This document shows positions 9,639 to 61,489 of a stretch of DNA of 64,000 bases, in pieces. The stretch comes from Acidimicrobiales bacterium (GTDB lineage: Bacteria > Actinomycetota > Acidimicrobiia > Acidimicrobiales > AC-9): assembly GCA_051985455.1 (NCBI GenBank), contig JBPYEI010000042.1, positions 12,088 to 76,087 of the forward strand. The letters run 5' to 3'. Position 1 is the stretch's first letter, and each line of letters begins with the position of its first letter. The notes under the pieces are model-generated. The model was not told where the DNA came from. It searched no databases and worked only from the letters and a program-made list of their open reading frames with translations. The position numbers were made by a program, and so were the translations under genes.

Positions 9639-9693
9639 GGCGCCAGGTTAGCCGGCCGATGGTGCCGACAGCCCGGGACGAAGGAGCGACGAG

Positions 9694-47809: not shown

Positions 47810-48574
47810 CTAGGCATCGAACGTGATCCGACGCGCCACCACGTCGGCGGCCACCTCGCCCAGAGGCCGCCCCTGGGACCAGGCGTGCGCGCGCATGCAC
47901 GCCAAGGCCTCGTCCACGTCGATCTCGAGCTGCACGGCCACCATCCCGGTGGCCTGGTGAACCCGCCGACGGTCCTGCATCATGCGCTCGAGCGGCGGCG
48001 GCAGCCACCCCGGAGGGCGCTCAGCCACGACGTCCAGCACGAGCCGGGTGCCGACCTCGGCGAGCCTCAGCCCCGCCTCCACCTCGTCCTCCTCGAGCGG
48101 GCCGGGCTGGTCACGGTAGAAGTCGAACGCGCCCACCCGGGCCTCGAACGCCTGCAGGGGAAACGCGAAGATGGCACCCAACCCGGCATCGATGGCGGCC
48201 GGCGTGAAGGCCGGCCATGAACGGTCGCCACTGAGCTCGGAGACCAGCACCGGCCGCTGCTCGTTGTAGGAGTCCAGGCAGGGGCCCTCCCCGAGCGAGA
48301 ACTGGAGTTGCTCCATCGTGTGGGCCCGGGAGTCGGAACTGAACAGCGTGCCGCCGTGCTGACCGCCCGACATCACCATCGCTCCCATCCCGCTCACGGG
48401 CAGCAGCTCGACCGAAGCCGTACACAGGCGCTCAAAAGCAGCCGTGGAGGTAGGGGCTTGCTCGACCTCCACCAGGACCGCATCTAAGCGGTCCTGATCC
48501 ATTCCCACAGCGGCGGGACGAACGAGCCGGACCTCGCTGCCACGCGCACCACCACCTCCCCGGTTGACGACCAC
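47810..48574 (-). CDS. GAF and ANTAR domain protein
   Basis: EQLQFSLGEGPCLD and FAFPL; VHQATGMVAVQL..MRAHA ANTAR; start may be 48502. Confidence 0.9.
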   Translation of the reverse strand: MVVNRGGGGARGSEVRLVRPAAVGMDQDRLDAVLVEVEQAPTSTAAFERLCTASVELLPVSGMGAMVMSGGQHGGTLFSSDSRAHTMEQLQFSLGEGPCLDSYNEQRPVLVSELSGDRSWPAFTPAAIDAGLGAIFAFPLQAFEARVGAFDFYRDQPGPLEEDEVEAGLRLAEVGTRLVLDVVAERPPGWLPPPLERMMQDRRRVHQATGMVAVQLEIDVDEALACMRAHAWSQGRPLGEVAADVVARRITFDA

Positions 48575-48666: not shown

Positions 48667-50295
48667 GTGTCACTCGCCGCACCGCAATCCACTCCGGTGA
48701 CCGAGCTTCGGCACGGCCCATCGACGCCATCGACCGCTCCCCCACCGCGCTATCACTCGATCGAGGGGAGCCGACCGCGTGTCGCCCGGTCCATAATCGT
48801 GAGTGAACAGGCACAGATGATGACCGGGGCTGAACACGCTGAGAGCAGCACCGCCGATGACCCCGCTGCTGGGGCCGATGCGTGGTTGAGCGAATCCGAC
48901 GCAGCGGGGCTCTTGGGGATGTCCCTCAGCTTCGTCCATCGGCAGGTAGCGAGCGGCGCGCTCAAGGTCCAGGAACGAGACAAGGTCTGCCTCATCAGTC
49001 GGGGTGACCTCGACGACTACATCGAGGCCAGCCGCATTCAGCCCAGATCGTCCCGGTTGCGTCCTCCACCACGCCCGCCGCGTGTCGCCTCCGACCGGTC
49101 ACCGAGGCGGTATGTCCCGAGCTGGGGCCGCCGCCGGGAACGTCCGGTGGTCATCTCCTCGGCGGGGCTGATGGCGGGGTTGATCGCCGGGTTGGTCATC
49201 GTCGGGCTCGTCGGTCTGCTGGCGGCGCAGATGCTTTCGTCCCGACCCCAGGTCCGGGTCGACGGTCGAGCCGCGGCTCTGCCGTCTTCCGGGACGGTGG
49301 GCGGCGTGCTCCGAGCTGCCCACGTCCGCCTGCCTGGCGGGAGGCTCTACTCCTTGGTGAGCCGTCGGGTCCTCGAGACCGACGACCGAGCGGTGCCCCC
49401 CGTGCTCCTCGTGAACGGTCGCCCGGCGTCCCTCGGCGCTCGGGTGCGGCCTGGCGACCGGATCGCGGTGCTTCCCGGGTCGGCGACAGAGGCCGCTGCG
49501 CTGAAGGACGAGACGACGGCCGCCCTCCTGACCGGAGCGCCTGCGCCTGGGCCCACCTCACAGACGATCCAGCATGAGGGCCTCCCCGACGTCGAGCGCT
49601 TTCTCTGGCATCCCGGGTCCCAAGGGGCGCAACGGGTTGTCACGGGAGCGGTCAGCGGAGAGGTCCTCAGCCGCGCCCTCGTTCCGCCCTCTCCCGCCGT
49701 CGCCGAGACGGGCAAGGTCGTCGCGCTCACTTTCGACGACGGCCCCGATCCCCTCTGGACGCCGCAGGTGCTCTCGATCCTCCACGACGAAGGCATCAGC
49801 GCCACCTTCTGCCTCATCGCCCGCCAGGTTCCCGGCAACGCCGAGGTGGTGCGGCACGAGGTGGCCGACGGCGACACCGTCTGCGACCACACCGTCGACC
49901 ACGACGTGCATCTCGACCGGGCGCCACGTGGCCACGTGGCCGACCAGATCGACCGGGGAGCCGACATCATCGCGTCGGTCGCCGGCGTGCAGCCTTCCTT
50001 CTACCGGCCGCCGGGAGGGACGCTGTCGCCGACGGTGATCGACGTGGCCCACGCCCGAGGCCTTCGGGTGCTCTACTGGTCGGTCGATCCATCCGACTAC
50101 CTGCGACCGCTCCCTGGGGTGATCCTCCAGCGTGTCCTCGCTGGAGTGCGTCCGGGCGCCATCATCCTGCTCCACGACGGAGGGGGTGACCGCTCTCATA
50201 CCGTCGCCGTCCTTCGCCCACTCATCGACAGCCTCAAGGCGCAGGGCTACGGCTTCACCACGCTGGCCGGGAAGTCGTCCGCCACGGCGCCCTGA
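48667..50295 (+). CDS. Polysaccharide deacetylase with N-terminal excisionase-like HTH, TM and ubiquitin-like region
   Basis: WLSESDAAGLLGMS...ISRGDLDDYI; TM segment; LTFDDGP, HTVDH, YRPPGG and LLHDGGG; start may be 48799. Confidence 0.82.
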   Translation: MSLAAPQSTPVTELRHGPSTPSTAPPPRYHSIEGSRPRVARSIIVSEQAQMMTGAEHAESSTADDPAAGADAWLSESDAAGLLGMSLSFVHRQVASGALKVQERDKVCLISRGDLDDYIEASRIQPRSSRLRPPPRPPRVASDRSPRRYVPSWGRRRERPVVISSAGLMAGLIAGLVIVGLVGLLAAQMLSSRPQVRVDGRAAALPSSGTVGGVLRAAHVRLPGGRLYSLVSRRVLETDDRAVPPVLLVNGRPASLGARVRPGDRIAVLPGSATEAAALKDETTAALLTGAPAPGPTSQTIQHEGLPDVERFLWHPGSQGAQRVVTGAVSGEVLSRALVPPSPAVAETGKVVALTFDDGPDPLWTPQVLSILHDEGISATFCLIARQVPGNAEVVRHEVADGDTVCDHTVDHDVHLDRAPRGHVADQIDRGADIIASVAGVQPSFYRPPGGTLSPTVIDVAHARGLRVLYWSVDPSDYLRPLPGVILQRVLAGVRPGAIILLHDGGGDRSHTVAVLRPLIDSLKAQGYGFTTLAGKSSATAP

Positions 50296-50409: not shown

Positions 50410-50628
50410 TCAGCTCTGCCGCTCAGCTCGCATTGACAGCGCCAGCTTCGGGCAGCCCGACACCGCAGCCTCGGCGTGCCCGAGCAGCCCGTCGGGGATC
50501 GCCTCCTTGCGGATGATCGGATACCCCCATTCGTCGGGCTCGATCCACTCCGGAAACAGCTCGACACACGAGCCGTAGCCGTCGCAGGCTACCGGATCAA
50601 CGACCAGGTGCAGCTGGCGACGTCTCAT
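50410..50628 (-). CDS. Ferredoxin, likely 3Fe-4S
   Basis: VDPVACDGYGSC...CPKLAL; ATGA overlap with the upstream gene. Confidence 0.88.
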   Translation of the reverse strand: MRRRQLHLVVDPVACDGYGSCVELFPEWIEPDEWGYPIIRKEAIPDGLLGHAEAAVSGCPKLALSMRAERQS

Positions 50629-51962
50629 CGGCGTCGAGGTCTGGCGACGGCCTGCGCACGTATCGGCTCGGGCACCGGTAGCGCCCCTGGTTCGAACGCC
50701 TGGGCACAGGGTCCGCGCTCCTCGTGGGCGCTCACGTGGCGGGGGAAGGCACGAAGCACGCTGCGCACCAGCTTGGCGACCCCGTCGGGGTGGTGGCAGG
50801 CGCCACGGCCGTCGACGAGCGAAGAAAGTTGTGCCAGGCGCTCTGTCGCACCTCGCTGGCTGCCGCCAAGAGCCAGGCTGGTCATGGCTGCCGTCATGGC
50901 TGGCAGGCCGTTCACACAGGGACCGCACTGGCCAGCGGCCTGGGTCTCCAGGTAGGCGACGACGCGGGCCGTCTCGGCCAGCGGGCAGCTGGTCCGAGGA
51001 AGCAGCGCGATGACGCCGGGACCGAACGTGGCCCCCAGCGGCCGGAGATGTTCTTCGCACAGCGGTGTTTCCATGGCCTGCCGGGCCGGTAGCCAGCTCC
51101 CGCCGTAGCCGCCGACCAGGACTCCGCCCACTGTTTCGGGCTGAATGTCGAAGACCTCGACGACATTCCGAACCGGGGTCCCCAGGGCGAGCTCCGTGAC
51201 GCGTGGCCTGGACACCGCCCCGCACACGGTCGCCAACGCGGTGCCGGGCGAGTCCGACGTACCCAACTGGCGGAACCAGCTCGCCCCGAAGCGAGCGATG
51301 AGCGCGGCATGGGCCAGCGTCTCGACGTTCTGGACCAGGGTCGGTTGGCCGTCCACTCCTCGTTCGTGAACAGGTCGGGTCCGGGTGAAGTAGGGCCGCC
51401 CCCCGGGTCCGCCGTTGAGTTGGGCGACCGCCGCCGATGACTCGCCGGCGACGAAGCGGTCCGCAGCCACGACAATCTCCGGCGCCACCGGGTCCAGGCC
51501 GAGCGCTGACCGCTCGGCGACCGCAGCCGATACCGCTTCGACCAAGCGAGCGGGCACGAAGATCACCAACCGGTTGGCACCGACCGCGCCGGCGGCCAGG
51601 GTGGCCCCGTCGAGCACGAGATGCGGCGCCCTGGTGAGCAGCAGCGCATCCTTGCGGCTGGCTGGCTCTCCCTCGGCGCCGTTGGCGACCACGACGGGAC
51701 GTCGAAATCGCTTCGACGCGACGGATCGCCACTTTGTCGCTGTCGGGAACCAGGCGCCACCCCGGCCCCGCAGTCCGCTGCGCTCGAGCTCCACCAGCAG
51801 GTCGGGCCGACCACGACCCCCGCTCAATGGAGGCAAGCCCCAGCGGTCGACGTGCTCGCGAACGGTCGGTCGTTGTTCCCGCGGCAGGAGGGCCTCGAGG
51901 AGCCGGGCCGTGCCTGATGGCGCCGGCACGCTCGTTCCCGGTCTCGACATGGCGACGTTCAC
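50625..51962 (-). CDS. Stand-alone NuoF-like FMN/4Fe-4S oxidoreductase
   Basis: GLRGRGGAWFP, NGAEGEP, AGESSA, QNVET and GQCGPC...GACHHPDG. Confidence 0.9.
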   Translation of the reverse strand: MNVAMSRPGTSVPAPSGTARLLEALLPREQRPTVREHVDRWGLPPLSGGRGRPDLLVELERSGLRGRGGAWFPTATKWRSVASKRFRRPVVVANGAEGEPASRKDALLLTRAPHLVLDGATLAAGAVGANRLVIFVPARLVEAVSAAVAERSALGLDPVAPEIVVAADRFVAGESSAAVAQLNGGPGGRPYFTRTRPVHERGVDGQPTLVQNVETLAHAALIARFGASWFRQLGTSDSPGTALATVCGAVSRPRVTELALGTPVRNVVEVFDIQPETVGGVLVGGYGGSWLPARQAMETPLCEEHLRPLGATFGPGVIALLPRTSCPLAETARVVAYLETQAAGQCGPCVNGLPAMTAAMTSLALGGSQRGATERLAQLSSLVDGRGACHHPDGVAKLVRSVLRAFPRHVSAHEERGPCAQAFEPGALPVPEPIRAQAVARPRRR

Positions 51963-53122
51963 TGGTTGGACGCCGCTGCGTCGCCGCTCGCGCTTCCGGG
52001 TGTCCCCTCGGCCGTGCCGTCGACCCGTCCGCTGGACTGATCCAGACCCAGCCGCATGGTGAGGCTCATCGAGGACGTCCCGCTGTGCACGACGGCCACC
52101 ACCCGGTCGCCGTTCAATGCCACGATCTGCCCTGTTCCCGGTCCGACCGTGACCTGGCTGGAGCTCAGCCGCACGCCCTGTCCCTCCTGAGTCCCGTGCA
52201 GCACGAGATCGAAGGGGAGGTTGGCGCCTCCGCTCAGCTGGCCCCGGATCTCGACAGTCACCAGTCCCGACGCGTCGGGCGCCGACGTCGTGAACGAGCC
52301 GGCGACCGTTGCCTCGAACGCGGTGGTCGGCAGTGATGCGCTCCCTCCCGTAGTGCCAGGCGGTGGGCTGGCCGGTGGGGTCGACGGCGGCGGTGCCGGG
52401 CTGGTGCTCTGCGAGGCGGGAGCAGACGACGCGCCCGCCAGGAGGGACGTGGGAGTACCCGCCCGCTTGGCCCAGTTGGAGCTCAGCGGGCCCAAGACGA
52501 CGAAGAACCCGAGTGTCAGACCGAAGGCCGAGGCGGCACCGCCGCCCAGGACCCGCCGGCCGGCGTGTGTCGGCCAGCCGGCGGCCAGGCGGTAACCGAA
52601 GGCCCCGAGCACGGCGGCCACGCATACCGCATTGACGACCAGGACCAGCCCCAGGCGGGAATCGGTGCCGCTTCCGAGGCCGTGGAGCACGGCCACCGGC
52701 CAGCAGGCGTAGGCCAGCCAGTGGACAACCTTCCAGGTCCGGTAGCCGATGCGACGACGGACGGCACTGGTGATCCCGAGCACGATGAAGAGGTCGAAGG
52801 ACAGCGCCCCGAAGGCGAGCCAGAGGGGCCGGTACGGCGAGCGGAAGGGGATCACGGCATCGAGGAACCCGATGGGGGCGAACCCGTCCATCACCGAGGT
52901 GACGACGTGGAGGACGATGAGCACCAGGCAGAACAGCGACAGGTCGCGGTGGAGGCTCTGGGAGAAGAACCGGGGCCATCGCCGTGACGTCCATCCGAGA
53001 CTGGCGGCCACGCCCAGGACCATCACTGCGCTGAGCAGGATCGTCGCCACGATCCCTGATCCTCTCGTGAGGTACCAGTACGCGGTCGGCCCATGCGTCG
53101 CTGCCAGCACGGCTCCGGGCAC
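51959..53122 (-). CDS. Ferric reductase-like transmembrane protein with C-terminal soluble domain
   Basis: WYLTRGSG, four TM His (SLHR, VLHV, VVHW, VLHG) and GSGTD; PST linker. Confidence 0.88.
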   Translation of the reverse strand: MPGAVLAATHGPTAYWYLTRGSGIVATILLSAVMVLGVAASLGWTSRRWPRFFSQSLHRDLSLFCLVLIVLHVVTSVMDGFAPIGFLDAVIPFRSPYRPLWLAFGALSFDLFIVLGITSAVRRRIGYRTWKVVHWLAYACWPVAVLHGLGSGTDSRLGLVLVVNAVCVAAVLGAFGYRLAAGWPTHAGRRVLGGGAASAFGLTLGFFVVLGPLSSNWAKRAGTPTSLLAGASSAPASQSTSPAPPPSTPPASPPPGTTGGSASLPTTAFEATVAGSFTTSAPDASGLVTVEIRGQLSGGANLPFDLVLHGTQEGQGVRLSSSQVTVGPGTGQIVALNGDRVVAVVHSGTSSMSLTMRLGLDQSSGRVDGTAEGTPGSASGDAAASNQ

Positions 53123-53124
53123 GG

Positions 53125-54063
53125 TCAGCCGCCCTCAGCCGGCCAGCCCTCGGTGCGCACGACATCTCCCGTCGTGCCCACCAGCACCGCTGGCAGACCC
53201 AGGGCCGCGAGCCAGCGCGGAGCATCGGGCCCCTTGACGAGGGCAGCGGTGGCGGCGACGTTGGCGTCGACGCAGCTACCCGCGGCGACCGCCACCGTTC
53301 GCCACGGAGAGTCGACGGGGAGACCGGTGGCCGGATCGATCACGTGGTGCATCGTCATGCCCCCGCGCACCCACGAGCGGGCCGACGTGCCGGAGGTGGC
53401 CAGGCCTCCGGATGCCAGAGCCACCACCTCTCTCACCTGGTCGACCGGCGCGCCGGACTCGTCTGCGAGACCGACACGCCAACCTTCCTCGGGTGGCGGC
53501 CCGGCGATGGACAGGTCACCGCCGATCGACACGAGAACGCCAGCGCCAACCTCCCGTGAGATCATCGCCGCGGCGCGGTCGGCACAGGCCGCCTTCGCCG
53601 TGGCGGCGAGATCGAGCGTCGCGTCGCTCGGCATCCGCAACGTGCGCGATGGCGCGTCCCACTCGATGCATTTCCATCCTGGGACCGGCTGGGCCGGAGG
53701 CCGTCCCTCGCGCTGGTCCTTCTCCATGAGAGCGAAGTCCCGGTCGTAGCCGATCTGGTTCATCGAGGCCTCGATGGTGGGGTCGACGGCACCATCGGTG
53801 AGACGGGCGGCGCGAAGGGCCATGTCGATCTGCTCCGCCATGCCCTGGCTCACCTGAACGGCGCCGCCCCTGCTGGCGTTGAGGCGGGACAGCTCCGAGT
53901 CGGCGCGAAACCGGCTGGCCAACAGGTCCATCCGCTCGAGCTCTCCGCGCAGCAAGGCAGTGGCCCGGGCCAGGCTCGCTACCCCGCTCACCAGCACCTC
54001 CGCGGTGGTGCCAAGGGCACGGACGCTGCTCCTGCCCACGACCGTGGAGCAGGTGGGGCTCAT
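53125..54063 (-). CDS. apbE: FAD:protein FMN transferase (ApbE family)
   Basis: SRFRADSELSRLN, GAVDPT, DLAATAK, GGDL, ATSG and HHVIDP. Confidence 0.93.
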   Translation of the reverse strand: MSPTCSTVVGRSSVRALGTTAEVLVSGVASLARATALLRGELERMDLLASRFRADSELSRLNASRGGAVQVSQGMAEQIDMALRAARLTDGAVDPTIEASMNQIGYDRDFALMEKDQREGRPPAQPVPGWKCIEWDAPSRTLRMPSDATLDLAATAKAACADRAAAMISREVGAGVLVSIGGDLSIAGPPPEEGWRVGLADESGAPVDQVREVVALASGGLATSGTSARSWVRGGMTMHHVIDPATGLPVDSPWRTVAVAAGSCVDANVAATAALVKGPDAPRWLAALGLPAVLVGTTGDVVRTEGWPAEGG

Positions 54064-54432
54064 CTAGTACGAGGTCGACCCCGACACGACGTGCGGGTGC
54101 CTCGTCGTCTGCTGAGGCACGGTCGGCGGGGGCGACAGCTGCGCCGGCGGGGTGGTGGTGGGCGCCGATGTGGCCGGACTCGACGCGGCCGGAGCGGACG
54201 TGGTGGGCGGGGCGGTGGTCGGCGGAGGAGCGGTGGCGGGCGTCCCCGAGGCGGGGGCGGCACGGCCAGGGGTCGTGTGGGCGACGTAGAGGGCGACCGC
54301 TCCTACGGCGGCCACGCTGGCCGCGCCCAGCCACTTGGTCATCCGGCGAAGGCGGCTCAGGGCCTGATCACGCTCGCTACCTCGGGAAATGGGGCCCGAG
54401 GGCGGTCGAGGATGCATCGGCGTCTGATCCAT
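54064..54432 (-). CDS. Small membrane protein, candidate flavinylation substrate
   Basis: RLRR followed by a TM, Pro/Thr linker and C-terminal HVVSGSTSY; stop abuts the apbE start. Confidence 0.7.
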   Translation of the reverse strand: MDQTPMHPRPPSGPISRGSERDQALSRLRRMTKWLGAASVAAVGAVALYVAHTTPGRAAPASGTPATAPPPTTAPPTTSAPAASSPATSAPTTTPPAQLSPPPTVPQQTTRHPHVVSGSTSY

Positions 54433-54439
54433 GGCTCCG

Positions 54440-54470
54440 ACGATACGGGTCGTCCCTTACAGGTATATGA
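54440..54470 (-). promoter_or_regulatory. Direct-repeat operator plus -10 for the apbE operon
   Basis: TCATA-N5-GTAAGG-N9-TATCGT, 7 nt before the ATG (leaderless-like). Confidence 0.6.
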
Positions 54471-54517
54471 AGTCGGGTCGAAATTCCTGCCTCGACCGAA
54501 GGTACCCCGTCCCACCT

Positions 54518-54548
54518 TCATGTTGCCGTCAGGAAGCTCTCGTAGCGT
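54518..54548 (+). promoter_or_regulatory. Direct-repeat operator plus -10
   Basis: TCATG-N5-GTCAGG-N9-TAGCGT. Confidence 0.6.
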
Positions 54549-54554
54549 GTGGTG

Positions 54555-55271
54555 GTGTCCCGCCTCGATCCCCGCTCCGAGAAGGGGGCCCCGTCCCGAC
54601 CGGGACGCCTGACGCAGGACGGGATGTCGCGCCCATCAGTGTCGCCGGCGCCCTCTGCAGCCTCTGGTGGGGAGGTCGTCGACCCCGGTGTCGAGGGCAA
54701 CGCCCGCCTCACGGGCTCCAACTCGGCCCTGCTGGTCGCACTCCTGGCCGTCGAGGGTGTCACCATCCTGTCGATCCGTTCCCTTCTCGGGCCACACGTG
54801 TTCGTGGGGATGCTGCTGATCCCTCCGGTGGCCCTCAAGGTCGGGAGCACCTTCTACCGTTTCCTCCGTTACTACCAGGGGGTGCCCGCCTACCGTCGCA
54901 AGGGACCGCCGCCGTGGGCACTTCGCCTCCTCGGGCCCGTCGTCGTCGTTCTGACGGTTGTCGTCCTGGCCAGCGGCGTCGGCCTCATGTTCGTCGCCGA
55001 GCCGTGGCGCCAGCGGCTGCTGACCGTCCACAAGGCGAGCTTCGTGCTCTGGTTCGGGGCCATGACGATCCACGTCCTCGGTCACCTCGCCGACACCGCG
55101 CGTCTGGCTCCCAGGGACTGGATCAGCAGGGCTGGCCGCCGTTGGCCCAGGGCCGGGGCCCGGCGCTGGACGCTCGTGGCGAGCGTGGCCGCCGGCGCTC
55201 TATTGGGTGTGTGGTTGCTCGGCCGGGTGAGTGGCTGTCTGGCGACTTCGCCCCACGGGCACGGCGGATGA
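54555..55271 (+). CDS. His-containing membrane protein (DUF4405/cytochrome b-like)
   Basis: GVEGNARLTG, GPHVFVG, STFYRFLRYY, VHKAS and IHVLGH; about 5 TMs; start uncertain (54549, 54555 or 54624). Confidence 0.7.
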   Translation: MSRLDPRSEKGAPSRPGRLTQDGMSRPSVSPAPSAASGGEVVDPGVEGNARLTGSNSALLVALLAVEGVTILSIRSLLGPHVFVGMLLIPPVALKVGSTFYRFLRYYQGVPAYRRKGPPPWALRLLGPVVVVLTVVVLASGVGLMFVAEPWRQRLLTVHKASFVLWFGAMTIHVLGHLADTARLAPRDWISRAGRRWPRAGARRWTLVASVAAGALLGVWLLGRVSGCLATSPHGHGG

Positions 55272-55321
55272 GGACGCCGTCGGCGACCTGACCGTCTGGC
55301 GGGGTGGCGCTCCGAGGCCGA

Positions 55322-56668
55322 TCACCTATCCGGCCGAACGGGCTCGAGCTCGACGTCGGGCCGCTCGTCCTGCCCGGTATCACCCGACCCCGGCTGTGAC
55401 AGCACGACACCCTCCTCGATGCCGGAAGCTGGGCTCGAGTCACGCGGGGCGCTGAAAGGCCACGAGACCTCCATGCGCGCGCCGCCGGTCGGCGCGTCGC
55501 CGATACTCCACTTGCCACCGGTCGATCGCACCACGGAGTCGGCGATGGCGAGTCCGAGCCCCGCTCCTCCCGGCTGGTCGGTCGCCCGGTGAAACCGGTC
55601 GAACAGCTGGGCCCGCCCCTCGGGAGGTATGCCCGGGCCGGTGTCCTCCACCGCGCAGAAGGCCCGAGGTCCGGATCGTCCCACCACCACGTGTACGACG
55701 CCGCCGATCCTCGAGTAGCGACAGGCGTTGTCGATGAGGGCCCCGAGCAGTCGGTCGATCCACTCCGGGGGCGCCTTGATGCAGGCCGGGCTCGTCCCTG
55801 TGTGTTCGACCGAGAGCCGTAGCTCACGGGTGGTGGCGACAGCTTCGAACCGGCGGGCACAGTCCTGGGCGATCGTCAACAGGTCGACTGGCTCATCTCC
55901 CGGAGGGGGTGGCTCCGAGTCGAACCGGGCCAGCCACAACAGGTCATGGACGATGCGGCGCAGGCGCTTGCTCTCACCGGCGACCCGCTCCAGGCTTGCC
56001 CTGTAGTAGCCGGCGTCCCGCTGGTTGCTGAGCGCAAGGCCGACCTCGGCCTCGATCACGCTCAAGGGAGTGCGCAGCTCGTGTGAGGCGTCGGCGGTGA
56101 GCTCGAGCTGCCGCCGACGGGCCCGTTCGACAGGCTCCGAGGCCTTGAGCCCGATGGCCAGGGACCCGAAGTAGAGGGCGGCCAGCAGCACCGGCCCTAC
56201 CAGTACCTCGGAGGCGATCAACACTCCCCTCACGTGTGTGGCCTGGGCCAAGCTTTCTCCGGCCACCACCCACACACCGTCGACCGGGGTCGCCGCCAGC
56301 CGGAAGGTGCCCGAAGCGAGGTTGGCGGTCGTGGGGTGGGAGGTGGACCACGCCCGTGGGGGCAGACCAGGAGCGTTGGGGGTCACGCCCACCGCCGGGC
56401 CCCCGGGTCTGGCGGCCCACACGAACACGGGAGCCTCGTTGGGATCGCGGTCGTCGCGTTCGGCCTCGCCCCGGAGCGGCAGACCGTGCTGACGGGCATC
56501 CGACAGCCGTTCCGTCAGTCGGTGGTCGAGGTCGCTGGTGAGCCGGTGTCCCACGAGCACGTCCAGCACGAGGACGACGACCACGTAGACCACGGCGATC
56601 ACCGCCGTCGTCACGGCCGCCACGCGAGCAGCGTGACCGAGGCGCGGCCGCCGGCGCAGCCAGGTCAC
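55322..56668 (-). CDS. Membrane sensor histidine kinase
   Basis: Two TMs, ADASHELRTPL, DNACRY, DTGPGI, FDRFHR and GLGLAI. Confidence 0.95.
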   Translation of the reverse strand: MTWLRRRPRLGHAARVAAVTTAVIAVVYVVVVLVLDVLVGHRLTSDLDHRLTERLSDARQHGLPLRGEAERDDRDPNEAPVFVWAARPGGPAVGVTPNAPGLPPRAWSTSHPTTANLASGTFRLAATPVDGVWVVAGESLAQATHVRGVLIASEVLVGPVLLAALYFGSLAIGLKASEPVERARRRQLELTADASHELRTPLSVIEAEVGLALSNQRDAGYYRASLERVAGESKRLRRIVHDLLWLARFDSEPPPPGDEPVDLLTIAQDCARRFEAVATTRELRLSVEHTGTSPACIKAPPEWIDRLLGALIDNACRYSRIGGVVHVVVGRSGPRAFCAVEDTGPGIPPEGRAQLFDRFHRATDQPGGAGLGLAIADSVVRSTGGKWSIGDAPTGGARMEVSWPFSAPRDSSPASGIEEGVVLSQPGSGDTGQDERPDVELEPVRPDR

Positions 56669-57333
56669 GACGGCACCATCCGGTAGCCGACACCCCGTAC
56701 TGTTTCGATGCGGACGTGGGCGTCGCCCAGCTTTGCCCGCAAGCGAGCGATGTGCACATCGATGGTGTTGGAGCCCACCGCGTCGGCCTCCTGGTCCCAC
56801 ACCTGCACGGCAATCGACCGGCGCCCGACAACAGCCGGCGCCCTCCTCAGGAGCAGCTCGAGTATGGAGAGCTCGGTCGTCGTGAGAGGAAGCGGCCGCG
56901 TCGCCACCGACGCCGACCGGGAGGCGGGGTCGAACGCCACGTCCCCGCAGGCCAGGCGGGTGTCCCTGGTGTCCGAGGGACGCCGCAGGAGCGCCCGGAT
57001 CCTGGCCAGGAGCTCGGGGAAGTCGAAGGGCTTCACCAAGTAGTCGTCCGCCCCGGCGTCGAGGCCGGCCACCCGGTCTGCGGTGCTGTCGCGGGCGGTG
57101 AGCATCAGGACCGGCGTGCCCAAGCGGCGGGACCGGGCCTCGGCGAGCACGTCGAGGCCCGATTGCTTGGGCATCCGCCAGTCCAGGATGACCGCGGAGT
57201 AGTCGTAGGCCCGCAGGTAGGCGGCTGCCTGACCACCGTCCGCGACGGTGTCCACCACATAGCCGTTCTCGCGCAGGCCACGCTCCAGCACCGATCGCAG
57301 CCCCTCGTCGTCCTCGGCCACCAGGATTCGCAC
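56665..57333 (-). CDS. OmpR/PhoB family response regulator
   Basis: VAEDD, ILDWRMP, LTARD, DDYLVKPF and TVRGVGY. Confidence 0.96.
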   Translation of the reverse strand: MRILVAEDDEGLRSVLERGLRENGYVVDTVADGGQAAAYLRAYDYSAVILDWRMPKQSGLDVLAEARSRRLGTPVLMLTARDSTADRVAGLDAGADDYLVKPFDFPELLARIRALLRRPSDTRDTRLACGDVAFDPASRSASVATRPLPLTTTELSILELLLRRAPAVVGRRSIAVQVWDQEADAVGSNTIDVHIARLRAKLGDAHVRIETVRGVGYRMVPS

Positions 57334-57343
57334 AGCTCAGTGT

Positions 57344-57374
57344 GGTCTACCCGAGGAACCTGACGATTTCATGA
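57344..57374 (-). promoter_or_regulatory. Direct-repeat operator upstream of the response regulator (autoregulation candidate)
   Basis: TCATG-N5-GTCAGG-N9-TAGACC. Confidence 0.6.
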
Positions 57375-57438
57375 CGACTGTCGTGGCCGCGTGACGACGG
57401 CCCTCACGTGGACCCGGGTCTCCGCGGTGAAAGGTCCC

Positions 57439-58308
57439 TTACGTGCCACTCCGATGAAGGAGATGCTGGAGCGGCCCTTCGTGGGGCGCGTCGGTGACGC
57501 CGGCAGCCTTGCGGATGAACTGCGCCACCTTGCGCGGCTGGGCGATGAAGGCCGCGTGCGGGCCGTTGATGGTTTCCGTCGTCGCCTTCATCCTGTCGGC
57601 CATGAACCTCTCGGCCTCTGGAGAGATCCCATTGTCCTGCTCAGAAATGAGGTACCACGACGGAATCGTCTTCCAGCCGGCAGCACTTGCTGGTTCTTGC
57701 AGGGCGGCACCTGCCACGGGGCGCTGGGTGACAGCCATCACCTCGGCCACGTCCGTTGGCGCGTCTGCGCAGAACGTCTCCTGAAACTTGTCTCGCTGGA
57801 TGTACAGCTCCGGCCCTCCTGCGGCACCTGGCGCGTCATAATCCGTCAGATAGGACGTCGTGACCACCAGCGGTGGCGGAAACGGTTGCTGCACGCCGGC
57901 AACGCTCTCGCCCACGTCCAGACCAATGGCAGCGAGGAAGACCAGTGCGCTCACGTTGGTCAGCTCAGCCGCAGCCTGCCCCATGGGCGCGCCGCCATAG
58001 GAATGGCCGACCAGGACCACCGGTCCGTCGATGCCCTTGACCCGAGCGGCTATCGATTCTGCATCCGACGAGAGTCCTCGGAGCGGCACCGGGACCGCCA
58101 CGACTGTATGGCCGTCCCTCGTCAGCTCTCGGATCACGCCACCGAAGTACGATGCATCGGCAAATGCGCCGTGTACTAGCACAATTGTAGTTCCCTGCGG
58201 GCTGCCTCCCGTTGCGGCGGGCCCGCCTCCCATTCCCATGCGCGGCTCTGACACGACTACTCCTTCCAGGTACGTAGGCGTTTGTCGCCAGGCATTTTCG
58301 CCTTGCAT
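57439..58308 (-). CDS. Alpha/beta hydrolase
   Basis: VLVHGAFAD, GHSYGG, EQDNGISP and GPHAAF; true start probably near 58239-58260. Confidence 0.9.
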   Translation of the reverse strand: MQGENAWRQTPTYLEGVVVSEPRMGMGGGPAATGGSPQGTTIVLVHGAFADASYFGGVIRELTRDGHTVVAVPVPLRGLSSDAESIAARVKGIDGPVVLVGHSYGGAPMGQAAAELTNVSALVFLAAIGLDVGESVAGVQQPFPPPLVVTTSYLTDYDAPGAAGGPELYIQRDKFQETFCADAPTDVAEVMAVTQRPVAGAALQEPASAAGWKTIPSWYLISEQDNGISPEAERFMADRMKATTETINGPHAAFIAQPRKVAQFIRKAAGVTDAPHEGPLQHLLHRSGT

Positions 58309-58380
58309 CTCACGCTGCTACTCGTATCTTGGGACCGCACGAGACGATCCTGCGGTGAAGATAAGGATTTGGCTGACCAC

Positions 58381-58402
58381 GGTCTATTGGACCATGGTGT
58401 CG
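58381..58402. promoter_or_regulatory. Shared motif copy 1 (GGTCTATTGGACCATGGTGTCG)
   Basis: Near-identical to 62380-62402. Confidence 0.5.
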
Positions 58403-58420
58403 GTTGGACGCCGGGTGCGG

Positions 58421-59089
58421 CTACGTCCGTCGACCGGGCAGGTCGAGCGCGGCAGCAACTCTCACCAGCTCGGCGAGGGAGTCGACCCGCATCTTGCGCA
58501 TGACCTGTCCTCGGTGCGCCTTCACCGTGATCTCGCTGATACCGAGCTCGGCGGCGATCTGCTTGTTCAACAGCCCGGAAACAACCAATGCCATGGTCTC
58601 CCGCTCGCGCCGCGTGAGTGACCCGTAGCGCTCTCTGAGCTCACGAAATCGAGCCTCGTGAGCAAGCGCGGCACGGCTGCGCTCCAGGGCCTGTCTGATG
58701 GCATTCAGCAGGACGTCCTCGCCGAACGGCTTGGTCACGAACTCGACCGCCCCTGCCTTCATCGCCTCCACCGTGGTCGGCACGTCGCCGTAACCCGTGA
58801 TGAAGATGATCGGCACATCTGCACGATTGATGATGCGTTTCTGGAGTTCGAGGCCGTTCAGGCTGGGCAACTTCACGTCGAGAACCAGACAACTCGGACC
58901 GTCGACGGGCGAACCTTCCAGGAACTCCTCCGCCGAGGCGAACGTCTCGGGCTGCCACCCGGCGGAGAGAACGAGCAACTCGAGCGATTCCCGCACTGAC
59001 ACATCGTCGTCGACGACGAACACGACGGGGGTCCCGCCCGACGCCACTGGCGCCGTTGGCGTGCTGCGGGCCTGACCGCTTGAGCTCAT
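58421..59089 (-). CDS. FixJ/NodW-type response regulator
   Basis: VVDDD, VLDVKLP, FITGYGD, AMKAGA and TVKAHRGQVMRKM. Confidence 0.95.
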   Translation of the reverse strand: MSSSGQARSTPTAPVASGGTPVVFVVDDDVSVRESLELLVLSAGWQPETFASAEEFLEGSPVDGPSCLVLDVKLPSLNGLELQKRIINRADVPIIFITGYGDVPTTVEAMKAGAVEFVTKPFGEDVLLNAIRQALERSRAALAHEARFRELRERYGSLTRRERETMALVVSGLLNKQIAAELGISEITVKAHRGQVMRKMRVDSLAELVRVAAALDLPGRRT

Positions 59090-59511
59090 CTCGCCGTCAC
59101 CGGCCCGCTCCTCCACCTGTCCAGCGCGTCCCTCACCGCATCCAGGAGCGCCGCCTCGGTGAACGGTTTGGCAAGGCACCCGACGGCGCCGCGCGCCAGC
59201 ACTCCCGGAACCACGGTGTTCTCCCCGTGACCGGTGATGAACACGATCGGAATCGTCTGCCGGCGCTGTGTCAGCTCCGCTTCGAGGTCGGGGCCCGACA
59301 TCCCCGGCATCACGATGTCCAGGAGCAGGCAGCTCGTCTGGCTGAGGACGTCCGATGCAAGGAAGGCCTCCGCGGATGAAAACGCCTCGGAGGCGAAACC
59401 CAGCTGCCGTAGCAGGTCTGGAAGCGACTCGCGCACGGACTCGTCGTCGTCGACGACGGATATCAGTGGAGGTTTGCCTGTCACCGGTGCCTCATCGCGG
59501 TGACCTGTCAA
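59086..59511 (-). CDS. Single-domain response regulator receiver
   Basis: VVDDD, LLDIVMPGMSG, FITGH and LAKPF; start may be 59484. Confidence 0.92.
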   Translation of the reverse strand: MTGHRDEAPVTGKPPLISVVDDDESVRESLPDLLRQLGFASEAFSSAEAFLASDVLSQTSCLLLDIVMPGMSGPDLEAELTQRRQTIPIVFITGHGENTVVPGVLARGAVGCLAKPFTEAALLDAVRDALDRWRSGPVTAR

Positions 59512-61489
59512 CAGCGCTCAGGGAGCCGCTCGGAATGGAAAAGGAGAACGTCGCACCCGGACCGTCGTTCGGCTCCCCCCAGAGACGACCCTGATGTCCC
59601 TCGATGATGGAGCGGCTGACCGACAGACCGATTCCCATGCCGTCACTCTTCGTCGTGTAGAAGGCCTCCACCAGTTTGTCGAGCGTCTCCGGATCGACAC
59701 CCACGCCGGCATCCCGCACGCTCACCCGCACACGATCGCCCTCGTGCCGTTCGGTCTTGATCAGCAACTGCCGCCGGCGATCGTGCACGTCAGCCATGGC
59801 GTCCGAGGCGTTGCGGACCAGGTTCAGGATGACCTGTTGGAGCTGGATCCGGTCACCAGTGATGGTCGGGAGATCCTCGGCGAGCTCGAGCTGAGCAGCG
59901 ACCCGGTTTCTCTGCAGATCGCTCAGCGTCAACGCCAGGACCTGGCGCGTGACCTCGTTGAGATCGAGGAGCTCGAACGTGTACTCCTGCCTGCTGAACA
60001 GCCCACGCAGCCGGGTGATCACGTCGGAGCCTCGGATGCCATCGCGAATGGTGCGTCTCGCAGTCTCCCGGGCGCCGTCGAGGTTCGGAGGATCGGCGTC
60101 CAGCATCCGAAGACACGTACCGGCGTTGGTGATGATGCCCGAGAGCGGCTGGTTGACCTCGTGTGCGATCGACGCGGTAAGCACTCCGAGGCTCGTCACC
60201 CTCGCGACGTTGGCAAGCTCCGATCTCGCCTTGGCGAGAGCTTGTTCCGACACCAGGCGCGCCGTGACGTCCTGAACCGCGGCGATGTACTCGACTCGAC
60301 CACCCTGGTCGCGGGTCGCGTGGGCGACTGCGTGCAGATGCTTGATCGAACCGTCCGGCATCAGCAGGCGATACTGCCATTCGAGATCATCGGTGCCGTC
60401 TCGTCCACGTTCGACGATCTCGTCCACCGAGGTCAGGTCTTCCGGATGGACGCGACTGCGCACCAAATCGACTGTCACGGGCAGGCCGATCTCGAGCTCG
60501 TAGATGCGATAGAGCTGCTCGGACCAAGTGATCTCGTCCGTCGCCGCCTTCCAGGAGAAGCTGCCGGTAGAGCTGAGCCGCTGTCCCTCTGCGAGAAACG
60601 CCTCGCTGCGCCGCAGCTCCTCCTCGGAGCGCAGATCCTTGGCCGCTTCCGCTTGTTTGCGCGCCGTGATGTCCTGGAACCTGACCAGAGCCCTGCGCTC
60701 GGAATGGCCGGGGAACGACAGGGGACGGGAGTCGACGACGAGCGTCCGCTCGCCTGCGGCGGTGACGACATGATCCACTTCGACCGGCTGGAAGCCATGA
60801 CCGCCCGCAAGCACGTCCCTGAGCTTCTCCACGCTGAGTCCGGCTACGGCTGCCTCTAGCTGCGTCTGCACCGGCGCGGAGTTAAATACGCCATTCCCGA
60901 GCTCGTAAAGCGAAGTTGGTTCCCTCTCGTCGGGCGAGACCCCGAACATCGTGTAGAACGAGCGGTTGCCGGACTGGACCCGCTGGTCGGCTCCCAGCAC
61001 GGCGAGAGGATCGGCGACCGTGTTGAGGATCGCCCTGGTGCATTCGCGCTCGTAGACGACCTGGTCGATGGCCCCGCGGAAGGCAGTCACGTTCGTGAAC
61101 GTCAACACGGCGCCGGCGATCGGCTCACCCTCTGTTGCGTAGGGGGCGATCCGAACGACGAACCATGCGTCCTCGACGCGAAGGTCGATCCGCGACTCGG
61201 CTCTGGCGGTGATGACCTCGGTGCAGTGCTCCTCCAGGCGAGGCAACGTGGCGAGGACCGAGATATCGTGCGGCGCTCGCCCGATATCTGTCAGCGAGAG
61301 GCCCAGGGCATCCGCCGCCGCCTGGTTGAAGGTGGCCAGCTTCAGATCGCGCTGCAGGACGACGATCGGAACTTCGATGCTGTCGAGGATGCTGATCAGC
61401 CCGGTGGCAGCCCCATTTGCGGCCACGTCGCCGCCGCTGTCTTGCAGTGCAGCCCGGCCGGCCCTGAAGGTGGCCGGTTGCTCGGTCAT
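59492..61489 (-). CDS. Cytoplasmic multi-PAS histidine kinase (NodV/FixL-like)
   Basis: Three PAS-like regions, SIAHEVNQPL, QLQQVILNLVRNA and FYTTKSDGMGIGLS; no TM. Confidence 0.93.
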   Translation of the reverse strand: MTEQPATFRAGRAALQDSGGDVAANGAATGLISILDSIEVPIVVLQRDLKLATFNQAAADALGLSLTDIGRAPHDISVLATLPRLEEHCTEVITARAESRIDLRVEDAWFVVRIAPYATEGEPIAGAVLTFTNVTAFRGAIDQVVYERECTRAILNTVADPLAVLGADQRVQSGNRSFYTMFGVSPDEREPTSLYELGNGVFNSAPVQTQLEAAVAGLSVEKLRDVLAGGHGFQPVEVDHVVTAAGERTLVVDSRPLSFPGHSERRALVRFQDITARKQAEAAKDLRSEEELRRSEAFLAEGQRLSSTGSFSWKAATDEITWSEQLYRIYELEIGLPVTVDLVRSRVHPEDLTSVDEIVERGRDGTDDLEWQYRLLMPDGSIKHLHAVAHATRDQGGRVEYIAAVQDVTARLVSEQALAKARSELANVARVTSLGVLTASIAHEVNQPLSGIITNAGTCLRMLDADPPNLDGARETARRTIRDGIRGSDVITRLRGLFSRQEYTFELLDLNEVTRQVLALTLSDLQRNRVAAQLELAEDLPTITGDRIQLQQVILNLVRNASDAMADVHDRRRQLLIKTERHEGDRVRVSVRDAGVGVDPETLDKLVEAFYTTKSDGMGIGLSVSRSIIEGHQGRLWGEPNDGPGATFSFSIPSGSLSAVDRSPR

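Follow-up and report, generated by a model that had tools for sequence, protein, structure and literature searches.

A conserved, regulated actinobacterial operon with a candidate tail-borne flavin as a possible exit route for electrons from cytoplasmic NAD(P)H

Introduction

NQR, RNF, nitrous oxide reduction and Gram-positive extracellular electron transfer all depend on protein flavinylation by ApbE. To our knowledge, the flavin of every accepted ApbE substrate sits either within a folded domain or an integral membrane subunit, or on a tail that adjoins a folded flavin-binding domain. In this study, we analyzed a stretch of 64,000 nucleotides (nt; hereafter the window) of contig JBPYEI010000042.1 from an Acidimicrobiales bacterium (GenBank assembly GCA_051985455.1). 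A five-gene operon in the window encodes a small single-pass membrane protein, an ApbE, a putative di-heme membrane protein resembling MsrQ, NOX and STEAP, a NuoF-like protein and a ferredoxin, and it is accompanied by a divergent membrane-protein gene and an OmpR-type two-component system. We slightly favor, with a probability of about 0.55, the reading that this locus is an inducible and self-contained module whose components pass electrons from NAD(P)H in the cytoplasm to the external side of the membrane by way of a flavin borne on the tail of the small protein.

Several described systems come close to this locus. In Listeria, PplA is a lipoprotein with folded FMN-binding domains, FmnB is secreted, an ECF transporter supplies FAD, and the electrons travel via quinone. 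In E. coli, the two-component system HprRS (YedVW) is linked to msrPQ. MsrQ-like flavinylation systems were catalogued by Meheust et al. 2021 (PMC8238504); the available sections of that paper report 1797 clusters, mostly actinobacterial, of which 31 have a NuoF-like (PF10589) gene that replaces the fused NAD-binding domain. According to the same sections, MsrQ-like clusters typically include a gene for an FMN-binding domain, and only clusters with a predicted signal peptide on the ApbE or on the substrate gene were kept in the survey. NAD(P)H has been proposed as the donor for the extracytosolic flavin in these systems (PMC8238504; PMC11334425; available sections of both). Huang et al. 2024 (PMC11334425) modelled MsrQ-FMN_bind fusions and, in the sections available, also described flavinylation sites on unstructured C-terminal extensions of FMN_red proteins, which are the nearest precedent for the arrangement considered here. 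As for the site itself, the available text of PMC12052999 gives the minimal ApbE motif as seven residues with the modified Ser or Thr last, and states that engineered flavin tags perform best at protein termini.

Results

Gene organization and comparison with described systems

The genes were called from a frame plot of the third-position GC content (GC3) together with a listing of start codons, Pfam and NCBIfam. The GC content of the region is about 70%, and mechanical lists of open reading frames (ORFs) are full of artefacts there. The mechanical ORF at 50410..51732 was rejected as a wrong-frame artefact upstream of 50628, and the GC3 plot placed the true NuoF-like frame in that of an ORF of 866 amino acids (aa). 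The five-gene operon, the divergent membrane protein and the OmpR-type two-component system, all of which had been proposed in a first-pass annotation of this DNA, were recovered by the frame plot, the start codons and Pfam as follows.

50410-50628, minus strand: ferredoxin, 72 aa (Fer4_15)
50625-51950, minus strand: NuoF-like protein, 441 aa (Complex1_51K, weak SLBB, NADH_4Fe-4S)
51959-53122, minus strand: Ferric_reduct (MsrQ/NOX/STEAP-like) membrane protein, 387 aa (PF01794)
53125-54063, minus strand: ApbE, 312 aa (PF02424)
54064-54432, minus strand: small single-pass membrane protein, 122 aa (no Pfam or NCBIfam family)
about 54555-55271, plus strand: divergent membrane protein, about 238 aa (no Pfam family)
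55322-56668, minus strand: histidine kinase, 448 aa (HisKA, HATPase_c)
56665-57333, minus strand: OmpR-type regulator, 222 aa (Response_reg, Trans_reg_C)

Counted from the small gene, the junctions of the five operon genes are a TAG-ATG junction, a 2-nt gap, an 8-nt gap and an ATGA overlap, in which the ferredoxin ATG overlaps the stop codon of the NuoF-like gene.

The MsrQ-like systems, as the available sections of PMC8238504 describe them, have a PF01794 gene within five genes of ApbE; in this locus the two genes are adjacent, and the NuoF-like PF10589 gene is present as in the 31-cluster subset. The locus differs from them in lacking the signal peptide by which the surveyed clusters were selected, in having none of the other three domains (by inspection), and in having no PF04205 substrate, the candidate substrate being a domain-less C-terminal tail. 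Since its ApbE has no signal peptide, this locus may have been filtered out of that survey. In the available descriptions of MsrQ-like systems (PMC8238504, PMC11334425), we found no mention of a ferredoxin, a small subunit, a two-component system or an operator. The FMN_red tails of PMC11334425 are described, in the sections available, as folding back onto a flavin-binding domain, whereas the small protein of this locus has no such domain. The engineered flavin tag of Tong et al. 2021, as presented in the available text of PMC12052999, is similar to the tail found here in that it is a short unstructured peptide, is recognized by ApbE, has the modified Ser or Thr last and works best at a terminus. 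That tag, however, is man-made (D-x-x-S-G-A-T), whereas the C-terminus x-V-V-S-G-[GAS]-[ST] of this locus would appear to be a natural use of the same principle.

The E. coli MsrPQ/HprRS system shares with this locus a PF01794 heme b protein that exports electrons and control by the OmpR family (the HprR model gives 179 bits, below its cut-off). It differs in that this locus is without MsrP, in that the donor here would be the NuoF-like protein and the ferredoxin rather than quinol or Fre, and in that ApbE and the tail subunit are added. No MsrP-type molybdopterin oxidoreductase domain was found in the genes between 45.5 and 62.2 kb, and MsrP was not among the ten most recurrent neighbor families of the 80 related loci described below. 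NOX, DUOX, SpNOX and STEAP have in common with the membrane protein of this locus the transmembrane (TM) fold, the bis-His spacing (H-x13-H/H-x12-H) and NAD(P)H as the ultimate donor. In NOX and STEAP, however, the dehydrogenase is fused, whereas here it appears to be split into a NuoF-like flavo-Fe-S protein and a ferredoxin, and a seventh helix, an external beta-barrel and a putative tethered-flavin subunit are found in addition. The extracellular electron transfer system of Listeria (FmnB, PplA, Ndh2, EetA/B) is likewise Gram-positive, with an ApbE-type enzyme and a membrane-tethered, flavinylated surface carrier (PMC9973259, available sections). It differs by its quinone route and folded carrier, in place of which a heme protein and a domain-less tail are found here. 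The literature that we found contains no functional study of the operon, no domain-less tail substrate and no account of the operon's regulator. The first-pass annotation had taken the module to be uncharacterized, which holds for its function; the class itself had already been catalogued bioinformatically (PMC8238504, available sections).

Conservation of the module

A pattern scan of species genomes matched at least 600 stretches, with at least 581 relatives by tblastn, and all counts for 80 loci given in this paper refer to the best 80 (43-55% identity). Beside the NuoF-like gene, these loci contain the ferredoxin in 79 cases, the MsrQ-like gene in 78 and ApbE upstream in 77; all three partners are present in 76 of 80, so that the gene arrangement is far beyond chance. 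The synteny survey thus bears out the claim of the first-pass annotation that similar gene sets occur in other actinobacteria. Of the 80 loci, 60 have a response regulator, 58 a kinase and 15 the divergent protein. The best 80 include Acidimicrobiales, Solirubrobacterales, Streptosporangiaceae, Gaiellales, Thermoleophilaceae and Dermatophilaceae, and also cultured strains of Streptomyces, Nocardia and Streptacidiphilus as well as metagenome-assembled genomes (MAGs) of Chloroflexota and Dormiibacterota; the best related records are MAGs of Acidimicrobiales and Acidimicrobiaceae.

Among 40 relatives' genomes, a NuoF-like orthologue (E value 1e-82 or lower, 44-55% identity) was found in 12, including 6 of the 7 same-genus genomes, and these orthologues are set clearly apart from canonical NuoF matches (about 30% identity). 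In 13 relatives' loci searched by tblastn, the ferredoxin, the NuoF-like gene and the MsrQ-like gene were each present in 13, ApbE in 12, and the two-component system in 10, with two of the three misses on contigs of 7 kb or less; the divergent protein was present in one, there within the operon. When the phylum was sampled evenly, 31 of 401 genomes, the window's own included, and 16 of 249 genera had an orthologue of the NuoF-like protein (E value 1e-70 or lower). The stretch of the window was also found in 20 sequencing runs of 14 studies, all of them of soil-metagenome DNA and none of RNA.

Each family outside the core is found in 13 of the 80 loci at most. The commonest ten neighbors are GGDEF-EAL, acyl-CoA dehydrogenase, GNAT, SDR, ABC ATPase, ABC-2 permease, NAGPA, one Pfam-less family, MFS and Kelch. 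None of these ten is an obvious acceptor, and the module is taken to be self-contained, as had been proposed. The accompanying claim that no other nuo genes are present needs to be divided. No further nuo genes were found among the Pfam-scanned gene calls between 45.5 and 62.2 kb. The source assembly, a MAG of 1.9 Mb that is 68.7% complete, contains a single further PF01512 match, which is a canonical NuoF on another contig; the other nuo subunits were not searched for across the assembly.

One genome from another family of the order (G014) carries two copies of the module (L019 and L026). One copy is without the cytochrome barrel, and the other has a homologue of the divergent protein and a 467-aa ORF inside the operon. 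Among the relatives, the two-component genes of this genome are the nearest to those of the window (regulator 63%, kinase 51-54%, versus about 35% in same-genus genomes).

The small membrane protein as candidate ApbE substrate

The small protein of 122 aa consists of an Arg-rich N-terminal helix, one TM helix and a leash of about 60 aa rich in Pro, Thr, Ser and Ala, and it ends with V-V-S-G-S-T-S-Y. It has no Pfam or NCBIfam match and no FMN-binding domain. Its gene is translationally coupled to apbE. Of the best 80 loci, 72 have sequence upstream of apbE, and in 56 of these an ORF ending at most 130 nt from the apbE start has an [ST]-G-[GAS]-[ST] end, which is exactly C-terminal in 55. In the same loci, such ends are found in only 18 of 11451 other stop-to-stop ORFs. 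The types of end across the 56 loci are SGGS (35), SGAS (6), SGSS (4), TGGS (4), SGAT (2) and others. The anchor-plus-leash protein is kept, with variant ends, in 13 of 14 motif-less loci examined, and the remaining two non-matching loci are likewise.

The layout of this family is constant: an Arg-rich N-terminus with an R-D-x-x-L-x-R core, one TM helix, a P-G-[HRK] exit, and a leash. The leash is 51-151 residues long (median 78), is made of Ser, Thr, Pro, Ala, Gly and Gln with few charges, and ends with x-V-V-S-G-x-S/T. Within the 15 positions flanking the TM helix at each end, the basic residues of 51 proteins add up to 250 N-terminal and 79 C-terminal of the helix; this asymmetry indicates a topology with the N-terminus inside and the C-terminus outside. 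The C-terminus has the core of an ApbE site, [S/T]-G-x-[S/T] preceded by a hydrophobic residue, which reads V-V-S-G-S-T in the window. The small membrane protein is therefore a candidate for the flavinylated surface carrier that had been postulated for this locus. The alignments of the MsrQ-like protein, the NuoF-like protein and the ferredoxin revealed no further conserved [ST]G[AGS][ST] site (by inspection, not by a formal scan). In locus L084, where apbE lies 3 kb from the cytochrome gene, the tail protein has been relocated alongside apbE.

Two other interpretations of the small gene were set aside. A Tat signal is unsupported, as there is a single invariant Arg (R21, followed by D22). A read-through fusion of the small ORF with apbE was judged coincidental: the two are in frame across one TAG in the window, and the relatives use other frames (GTGA/TGATG overlaps). 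Separately, in the same-genus locus L015 (= L044; about 12079-12576, minus strand), the anchor is fused in frame to ApbE via a frameshift in the leash, and the C-terminal motif is lost. In the sister genome L023, unlike in L015, the small gene and apbE are separate. The fusion could be an assembly error or a natural membrane-anchored ApbE.

The ApbE itself would be an FAD:protein FMN transferase, as judged from its family domain (PF02424, 178 bits versus a cut-off of 25.6) and the signature of its catalytic region. Its H-H-V-I-D-P-x-T-G stretch aligns to HHILDPSTG and SHVIDPQTG of 1vrm and 4xgw (TM1553 and E. coli ApbE), and the alignment to these constructs, which are free of signal peptides, begins at residue 15-16. 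The E. coli equivalog model PRK10461 gives 83.7 versus a cut-off of 498.

Predicted complex of the small protein with the cytochrome

The complex of the MsrQ-like protein, two hemes and FMN was predicted with the small protein as the scored partner, in three runs and with three controls. The ipSAE was 0.89 in all three runs versus 0.01 for the best control. The mark used was reached by 58 of 80 solved complexes and by 2 of 110 mismatched pairs, a calibration that is only rough here because the prediction was run with our own alignments and with riding ligands. The predicted local distance difference test (pLDDT) score of the partner was 56-57, and at least 38% of the contacts agreed between the runs. 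The predicted interface is formed by residues 24-61 of the small protein and residues 8-29, 48-71, 153-159 and 226-229 of the cytochrome. The N-terminal helix is placed against the cytoplasmic B-loop and the TM exit against the outer loops, which fits the topology with the C-terminus outside. The small protein is thus predicted to bind the MsrQ-like subunit.

The MsrQ/NOX/STEAP-like membrane protein

The membrane protein matches PF01794 with 45 bits (cut-off 28). The pairs H58/H72 (H-x13-H) and H134/H147 (H-x12-H) are invariant in 11 orthologues. The structure model has a mean pLDDT of 67.5, with 60-80 in the TM region. By Foldseek, STEAP4 was matched with an E value of 2.8e-4, STEAP2 and SpNOX were also matched, and the NOX5 TM domain was matched with a probability of 1.0; the fold matches of the membrane domain include NOX5, DUOX and SpNOX. 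By VIA, the Z scores were 11.4 for NOX5 (root-mean-square deviation 4.2, 160 aligned), 11.3 for STEAP4 and 11.2 for STEAP1, where Z scores below 13 are not decisive alone for helical bundles. Judged from its family match, its His ligands and its fold, the protein belongs to the ferric-reductase-domain superfamily, and it would be a di-heme cytochrome b.

Seven helices are predicted. The positive-inside pattern and the homology to NOX helices 2-6 place the short N-terminus outside, and the seventh helix leads a linker of Pro, Ser and Thr and an eight-stranded beta-barrel (about residues 266-377, pLDDT 80-90) to the outside. By VIA, the barrel is similar to PloI4 and 2q03 (Z 10.0 each) and to streptavidin (Z 8.1), and weak lipocalin and AbmU matches were found by Foldseek. 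The orthologue alignment shows no conserved Cys, no conserved His and no SGAT-like site in the barrel.

An FMN_bind domain in the C-terminal domain of the cytochrome was considered and rejected, there being no Pfam match even at an E value of 10, no conserved SGAT-like site and no Atlas match. The C-terminus of the cytochrome was also rejected as a general flavin site, an S-G-A-T/S-G-S-T end being found only in two same-genus orthologues (L015, L023). Residues 147-154, in the outer loop right after the outer-heme ligand, read H-G-L-G-[ST]-G-[ST]-D, and only the two [ST] positions vary. This loop contacts the TM exit of the small subunit in the predicted complex, and it is a candidate docking site for a flavin or a phosphate.

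The NuoF-like protein and the ferredoxin

The NuoF-like protein has a Complex1_51K match of 100 bits and a NADH_4Fe-4S (PF10589) match of 55 bits (cut-off 23.5), and it aligns to T. thermophilus Nqo1 with an E value of 5e-47. The FMN loop and the N-x-x-E-G-E-P...K-D and N-V-E-T-L-A stretches, which are FMN/NADH motifs, are kept. The NuoF equivalog model TIGR01959 gives 188 bits versus a cut-off of 559. Five Cys residues (C322, C342, C345, C385 and C415) are invariant, of which one is an extra Cys 20 residues upstream of the N3 motif and one lies near the C-terminus. Judged from the equivalog score, the altered N3 motif, the absence of nuo neighbors and the presence of a canonical NuoF elsewhere, this protein is not a complex I NuoF. 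The ferredoxin matches Fer4_15 with 35.6 bits (cut-off 22.4). It is a single-cluster protein in which exactly three Cys residues (C15, C21 and C59-P60; C-x5-C...C-P) are invariant in 80 of 80 orthologues.

Operator and two-component system

The operator is a 16-bp direct repeat, TCATG-N4-CGTCAGG, with two CGTCA[T/G]G half-sites 11 bp apart. It stands at three promoters of the locus.

57344-57374, minus strand: promoter of the two-component genes; exact operator 57359-57374, 9 nt, TAGACC 57344-57349, 10 nt, GTG at 57333
54518-54548, plus strand: promoter of the divergent gene; exact operator 54518-54533, 9 nt, -10 hexamer TAGCGT 54543-54548
54440-54470, minus strand: operon promoter; degenerate operator 54455-54470, 9 nt, TATCGT 54440-54445, 7 nt, ATG at 54432

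The sites at 57359 and 54518 are the sole exact operator matches in the 1.9-Mb assembly, in which one-mismatch sites number 12 versus 5 for the reversed control. When the window was scanned with a slightly tighter pattern at up to 2 mismatches, 2 matches were found versus 0.41 expected, the 54518 site having 1 mismatch in this pattern. With up to 1 mismatch, the repeat occurs 30 times in 17 of the 80 loci versus 3.0 in shuffles. In all 12 closest loci (L028-L039, among the best 80), a near-perfect repeat lies just upstream of the small ORF, and the layout is constant in the window and in 12 of 12 relatives: the repeat, 9 nt, TANNNT, 6-8 nt, and the ATG of the small ORF (GTG in L030). This layout fits a leaderless transcript activated from the -35 position. 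The unit of repeat, 9 nt and hexamer also precedes the divergent gene (in the window and L029) and the regulator gene (in the window and L034). From these arrangements we infer that the OmpR-type regulator binds the direct repeat and thereby activates its own promoter, that of the divergent gene and that of the operon. A scan for consensus promoters and terminators found 0 promoters and 0 terminators, such a scan being uninformative at 70% GC.

In two relatives, a 417-aa gene lies behind the same unit of operator and -10 hexamer (L034, 1069-2322, and L036, 3013-4266, both on the minus strand). Read by eye, its product has a DoxX-type membrane start, a linker and a C-terminal C-x-H...C-x-x-H (Rieske-type) motif; the regulon of the relatives may thus include a second envelope redox protein. 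A CTTAG-N6-CTTAG repeat was rejected as an element of the window, being not enriched (8 matches versus 6.5 expected) and absent from the promoters of the window. Several relatives among the Acidimicrobiaceae (L028, L032-L034, L036-L038) have this repeat conserved on the upstream side of the operator, about 20 nt away from it.

The nearest NCBIfam models of the regulator all stay below their cut-offs: RppA (203 versus 250), TIGR01387 (CopR/CusR-type; 201 versus 279), PmrA and HprR. The best models of the kinase, RppB and the heavy-metal sensor kinases (TIGR01386, 140 versus 293), are also below cut-off. By these curated family scores, the two-component system is not assignable to the CusRS/CopRS type or to RppAB. 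The kinase has an extracytoplasmic sensor loop of about 130 aa, which contains no conserved Cys, His or Met among 12 orthologues.

The divergent membrane protein

The start of the divergent protein may be a GTG at 54549, 54552 or 54555, or an ATG at 54624. The protein has no Pfam match, and its Atlas matches are only unnamed actinobacterial clusters. The first-pass annotation described it as His-rich, which does not hold: it has about six His residues, of which three (H58, H136 and H150, the latter two forming H-x13-H) are invariant in 14 homologues, together with GNxRLT, K72 and Y83-Y84. The model consists of five long helices (pLDDT 85.7). Foldseek found nothing at an E value of 1e-3 or lower. 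There is a weak likeness to di-heme cytochromes b, FdnI being matched by Foldseek with a probability of 0.80 at an E value of 1.2, and b561 (Z 9.0) and CybB (Z 8.6) appear by VIA among generic helical bundles; against the four axial His residues of a di-heme cytochrome b, just three are invariant here. Homologues are found close to the operon in 15 of the 80 loci; the one in L019 is located within the operon. The divergent protein is, on this sequence evidence, probably co-regulated with the operon and accessory to it.

Surrounding genes

Convergent with the ferredoxin gene, a gene at 48667-50295 (plus strand) encodes a 542-aa protein with an N-terminal HTH_17 (excisionase-type) domain, a TM segment and a polysaccharide deacetylase domain. 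Just past it lie tandem GAF-ANTAR regulators of the RNA-binding antiterminator type (46973-47809 and 47810-48574, both on the minus strand). On the other side, the GC content falls from about 0.70 to about 0.64 immediately past the regulator promoter, at 57400-61000, where genes for an alpha/beta hydrolase, a LuxR-type regulator and a large multi-PAS histidine kinase are located. Among the relatives, a secreted NAGPA (phosphodiester glycosidase) protein of about 467 aa is found in 6 of the 80 loci; in L038 its gene (8313-9716, plus strand) begins just past the ferredoxin gene.

Discussion

From the gene content, the conservation of the cofactor ligands, the synteny, the C-terminal motif, the shared operator and the predicted complex, we infer each electron-transfer step, the flavinylation and its site, the direction of flow and the acceptor as follows. 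The NuoF-like protein would oxidize NAD(P)H via FMN and an Fe-S cluster and would reduce the three-Cys ferredoxin, which would pass single electrons to the inner heme of the MsrQ/NOX/STEAP-like protein. The outer heme would then reduce an FMN that is phosphoester-linked to the last Ser/Thr of the small subunit. This subunit would be anchored beside the cytochrome by its TM helix and would hold the flavin on a disordered leash of 50-150 residues. The reduced flavin might in turn reduce an external acceptor such as Fe(III), Cu(II), quinones or humics, a partner protein or O2. Expression would be switched on by the two-component system, which would activate the three promoters through the direct repeat at the -35 position. 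Part of this had been outlined in the first-pass annotation, which suggested metal reduction or envelope redox repair as the purpose. The order of carriers from NAD(P)H through the NuoF-like protein and the ferredoxin to the di-heme protein fits every domain assignment, and the cofactor residues are conserved; the flavinylated surface carrier can now be named, as a candidate, through the C-terminal motif of the small protein; and control by the two-component system has gained support from the direct repeat common to the three promoters.

Since the ApbE has no export signal, the flavinylation would be cytoplasmic: the enzyme, whose translation begins at the codon right after the small gene, would install the flavin before the uncharged tail crosses the membrane. 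The small protein might then be a natural flavin tag, in which FMN sits on the last Ser/Thr of a disordered leash without a flavin domain, the ApbE is cytoplasmic, and the translocated tail serves as a one-flavin swinging arm between the outer heme (or the barrel) and external acceptors. We put this more specific picture forward tentatively, with distinctly less confidence than the electron path as a whole.

Several observations weigh against this reading, and most of them concern the flavin. The ApbE has neither a signal peptide nor a membrane anchor: on inspection, 17 residues precede the domain, none of them in a hydrophobic segment, and an in-frame TAG lies directly upstream. Upstream of the domain, the reading frame lacks any hydrophobic window of 15 residues in 64 of the 72 loci, and an in-frame stop leaves at most 12 residues before the domain in 9 of the 72 and at most 21 in 12. 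The ApbE therefore looks cytoplasmic, while its proposed target tail is predicted to be external, and extracytosolic flavinylation as usually described, which had been assumed for this locus, does not fit. The export of a pre-flavinylated tail is an assumption and the weakest link of the argument, and the gene-family scans of the window and of the neighbor families found no flavin exporter encoded in or near the locus. The motif is not the canonical D-x-x-[ST]-G-A-[ST] either: His, Pro or Ala stands at -6 and Gly is commonest at -1, so that the Asp is missing and the Ala is usually replaced by Gly or Ser, and the copy in the window has two extra residues past the motif Thr. According to the available text of PMC12052999, a change of the motif Asp to Ala has a minor effect only. 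In the model of the complex, the C-terminal tail is not placed confidently, nor is the position of the FMN ligand shown. The barrel of the cytochrome is missing in 3 of the 13 relatives' loci and is therefore not an obligatory flavin dock. In the NuoF-like protein, the first Cys of the N3 C-x2-C-x2-C motif is replaced. At the operon promoter, the operator deviates at 3 of its 12 specified positions, and no conserved acceptor gene is evident among the families neighboring the 80 loci.

The missing export signal could also mean that the tail stays in the cytoplasm. In that case, the tethered FMN would connect the NuoF-like protein and the ferredoxin with the inner heme, and Fe(III), Cu(II) or O2 would receive electrons straight from the outer heme, as happens in STEAP, FRE and NOX. 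In NOX and STEAP the flavin lies beneath the inner heme, and a locus that encodes no flavin exporter would agree with such an arrangement, as would the cytoplasmic ApbEs with cytoplasmic targets reported in the available text of PMC12052999. The basic residues, however, are strongly on the N side of the TM helix (250 versus 79), and in the predicted complex the N-terminal helix contacts the cytoplasmic B-loop, with the TM exit next to the outer loops. Uncharged leashes rich in Ser, Thr and Pro are generally typical of cell-envelope segments, and the role of a cytoplasmic carrier is already taken by the ferredoxin. We regard a cytoplasmic tail as rather unlikely. Similarly improbable, in our estimation, is that the small protein is an unflavinylated structural or assembly subunit, with the motif serving for processing, glycosylation or docking, and that the ApbE has another target or binds or hydrolyzes FAD. 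The motif without the canonical Asp and Ala would be understandable in that case, as would a complex model that supports binding via the TM helix only. No FMN_bind (PF04205) domain was found by the Pfam scan of the locus or in the whole 68.7%-complete assembly. What speaks against such a role is that the motif matches the ApbE core and is at the extreme C-terminus in 55 of 72 loci as compared with 18 of 11451 background ORFs, that the small gene is coupled to apbE and stays with it when the cluster splits, and that inspection of the other operon proteins' alignments offered no alternative conserved site.

A further alternative concerns the acceptor and not the wiring. By analogy with NADPH oxidases, the reduced flavin or the outer heme might make extracellular superoxide or H2O2 for signalling, antagonism or oxidative chemistry. 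The matches of the fold to NOX5, DUOX and SpNOX would agree with this, and the carriers, which are presumably aerobes, include isolates of Streptomyces, Nocardia and Streptacidiphilus as well as MAGs of Acidimicrobiales and Solirubrobacterales. The occurrence of the window's stretch in soil metagenomes and the lack of an acceptor enzyme conserved nearby would also be compatible with O2 as the acceptor, and a multi-flavinylated protein with oxidase activity is mentioned in the available text of PMC12052999. The likeness of the fold is, however, equal for NOX and for STEAP, and the STEAPs are metalloreductases; we give an oxidase role only a small chance. The reading with a tail-borne flavin at the outer face of the membrane is thus the one that we prefer.

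The operon is real, widely conserved and regulated, and its kind is catalogued but, as far as we found, not functionally characterized. What is new is the candidate tail-only flavin carrier, the signal-less ApbE, the donor pair formed by a three-Cys ferredoxin and a modified NuoF-like protein, and the operator. If the preferred reading is true, the small protein would represent a new class of ApbE substrates, consisting of an anchor, a leash and a terminal S-G-x-S/T, which domain-based surveys would have overlooked. Gram-positive cells would, in addition, have a new way of providing themselves with extracellular flavin, and the signal-less ApbE poses the testable question of how a flavin gets out of the cell when there is no FAD exporter. 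The cultured carriers among Streptomyces, Streptacidiphilus and Nocardia, for instance Streptomyces griseorubiginosus and Streptacidiphilus fuscans, make bench work feasible. The operator and the two-component system, finally, offer a route to the inducing signal and hence to the physiological role that the module may have in soil redox chemistry.

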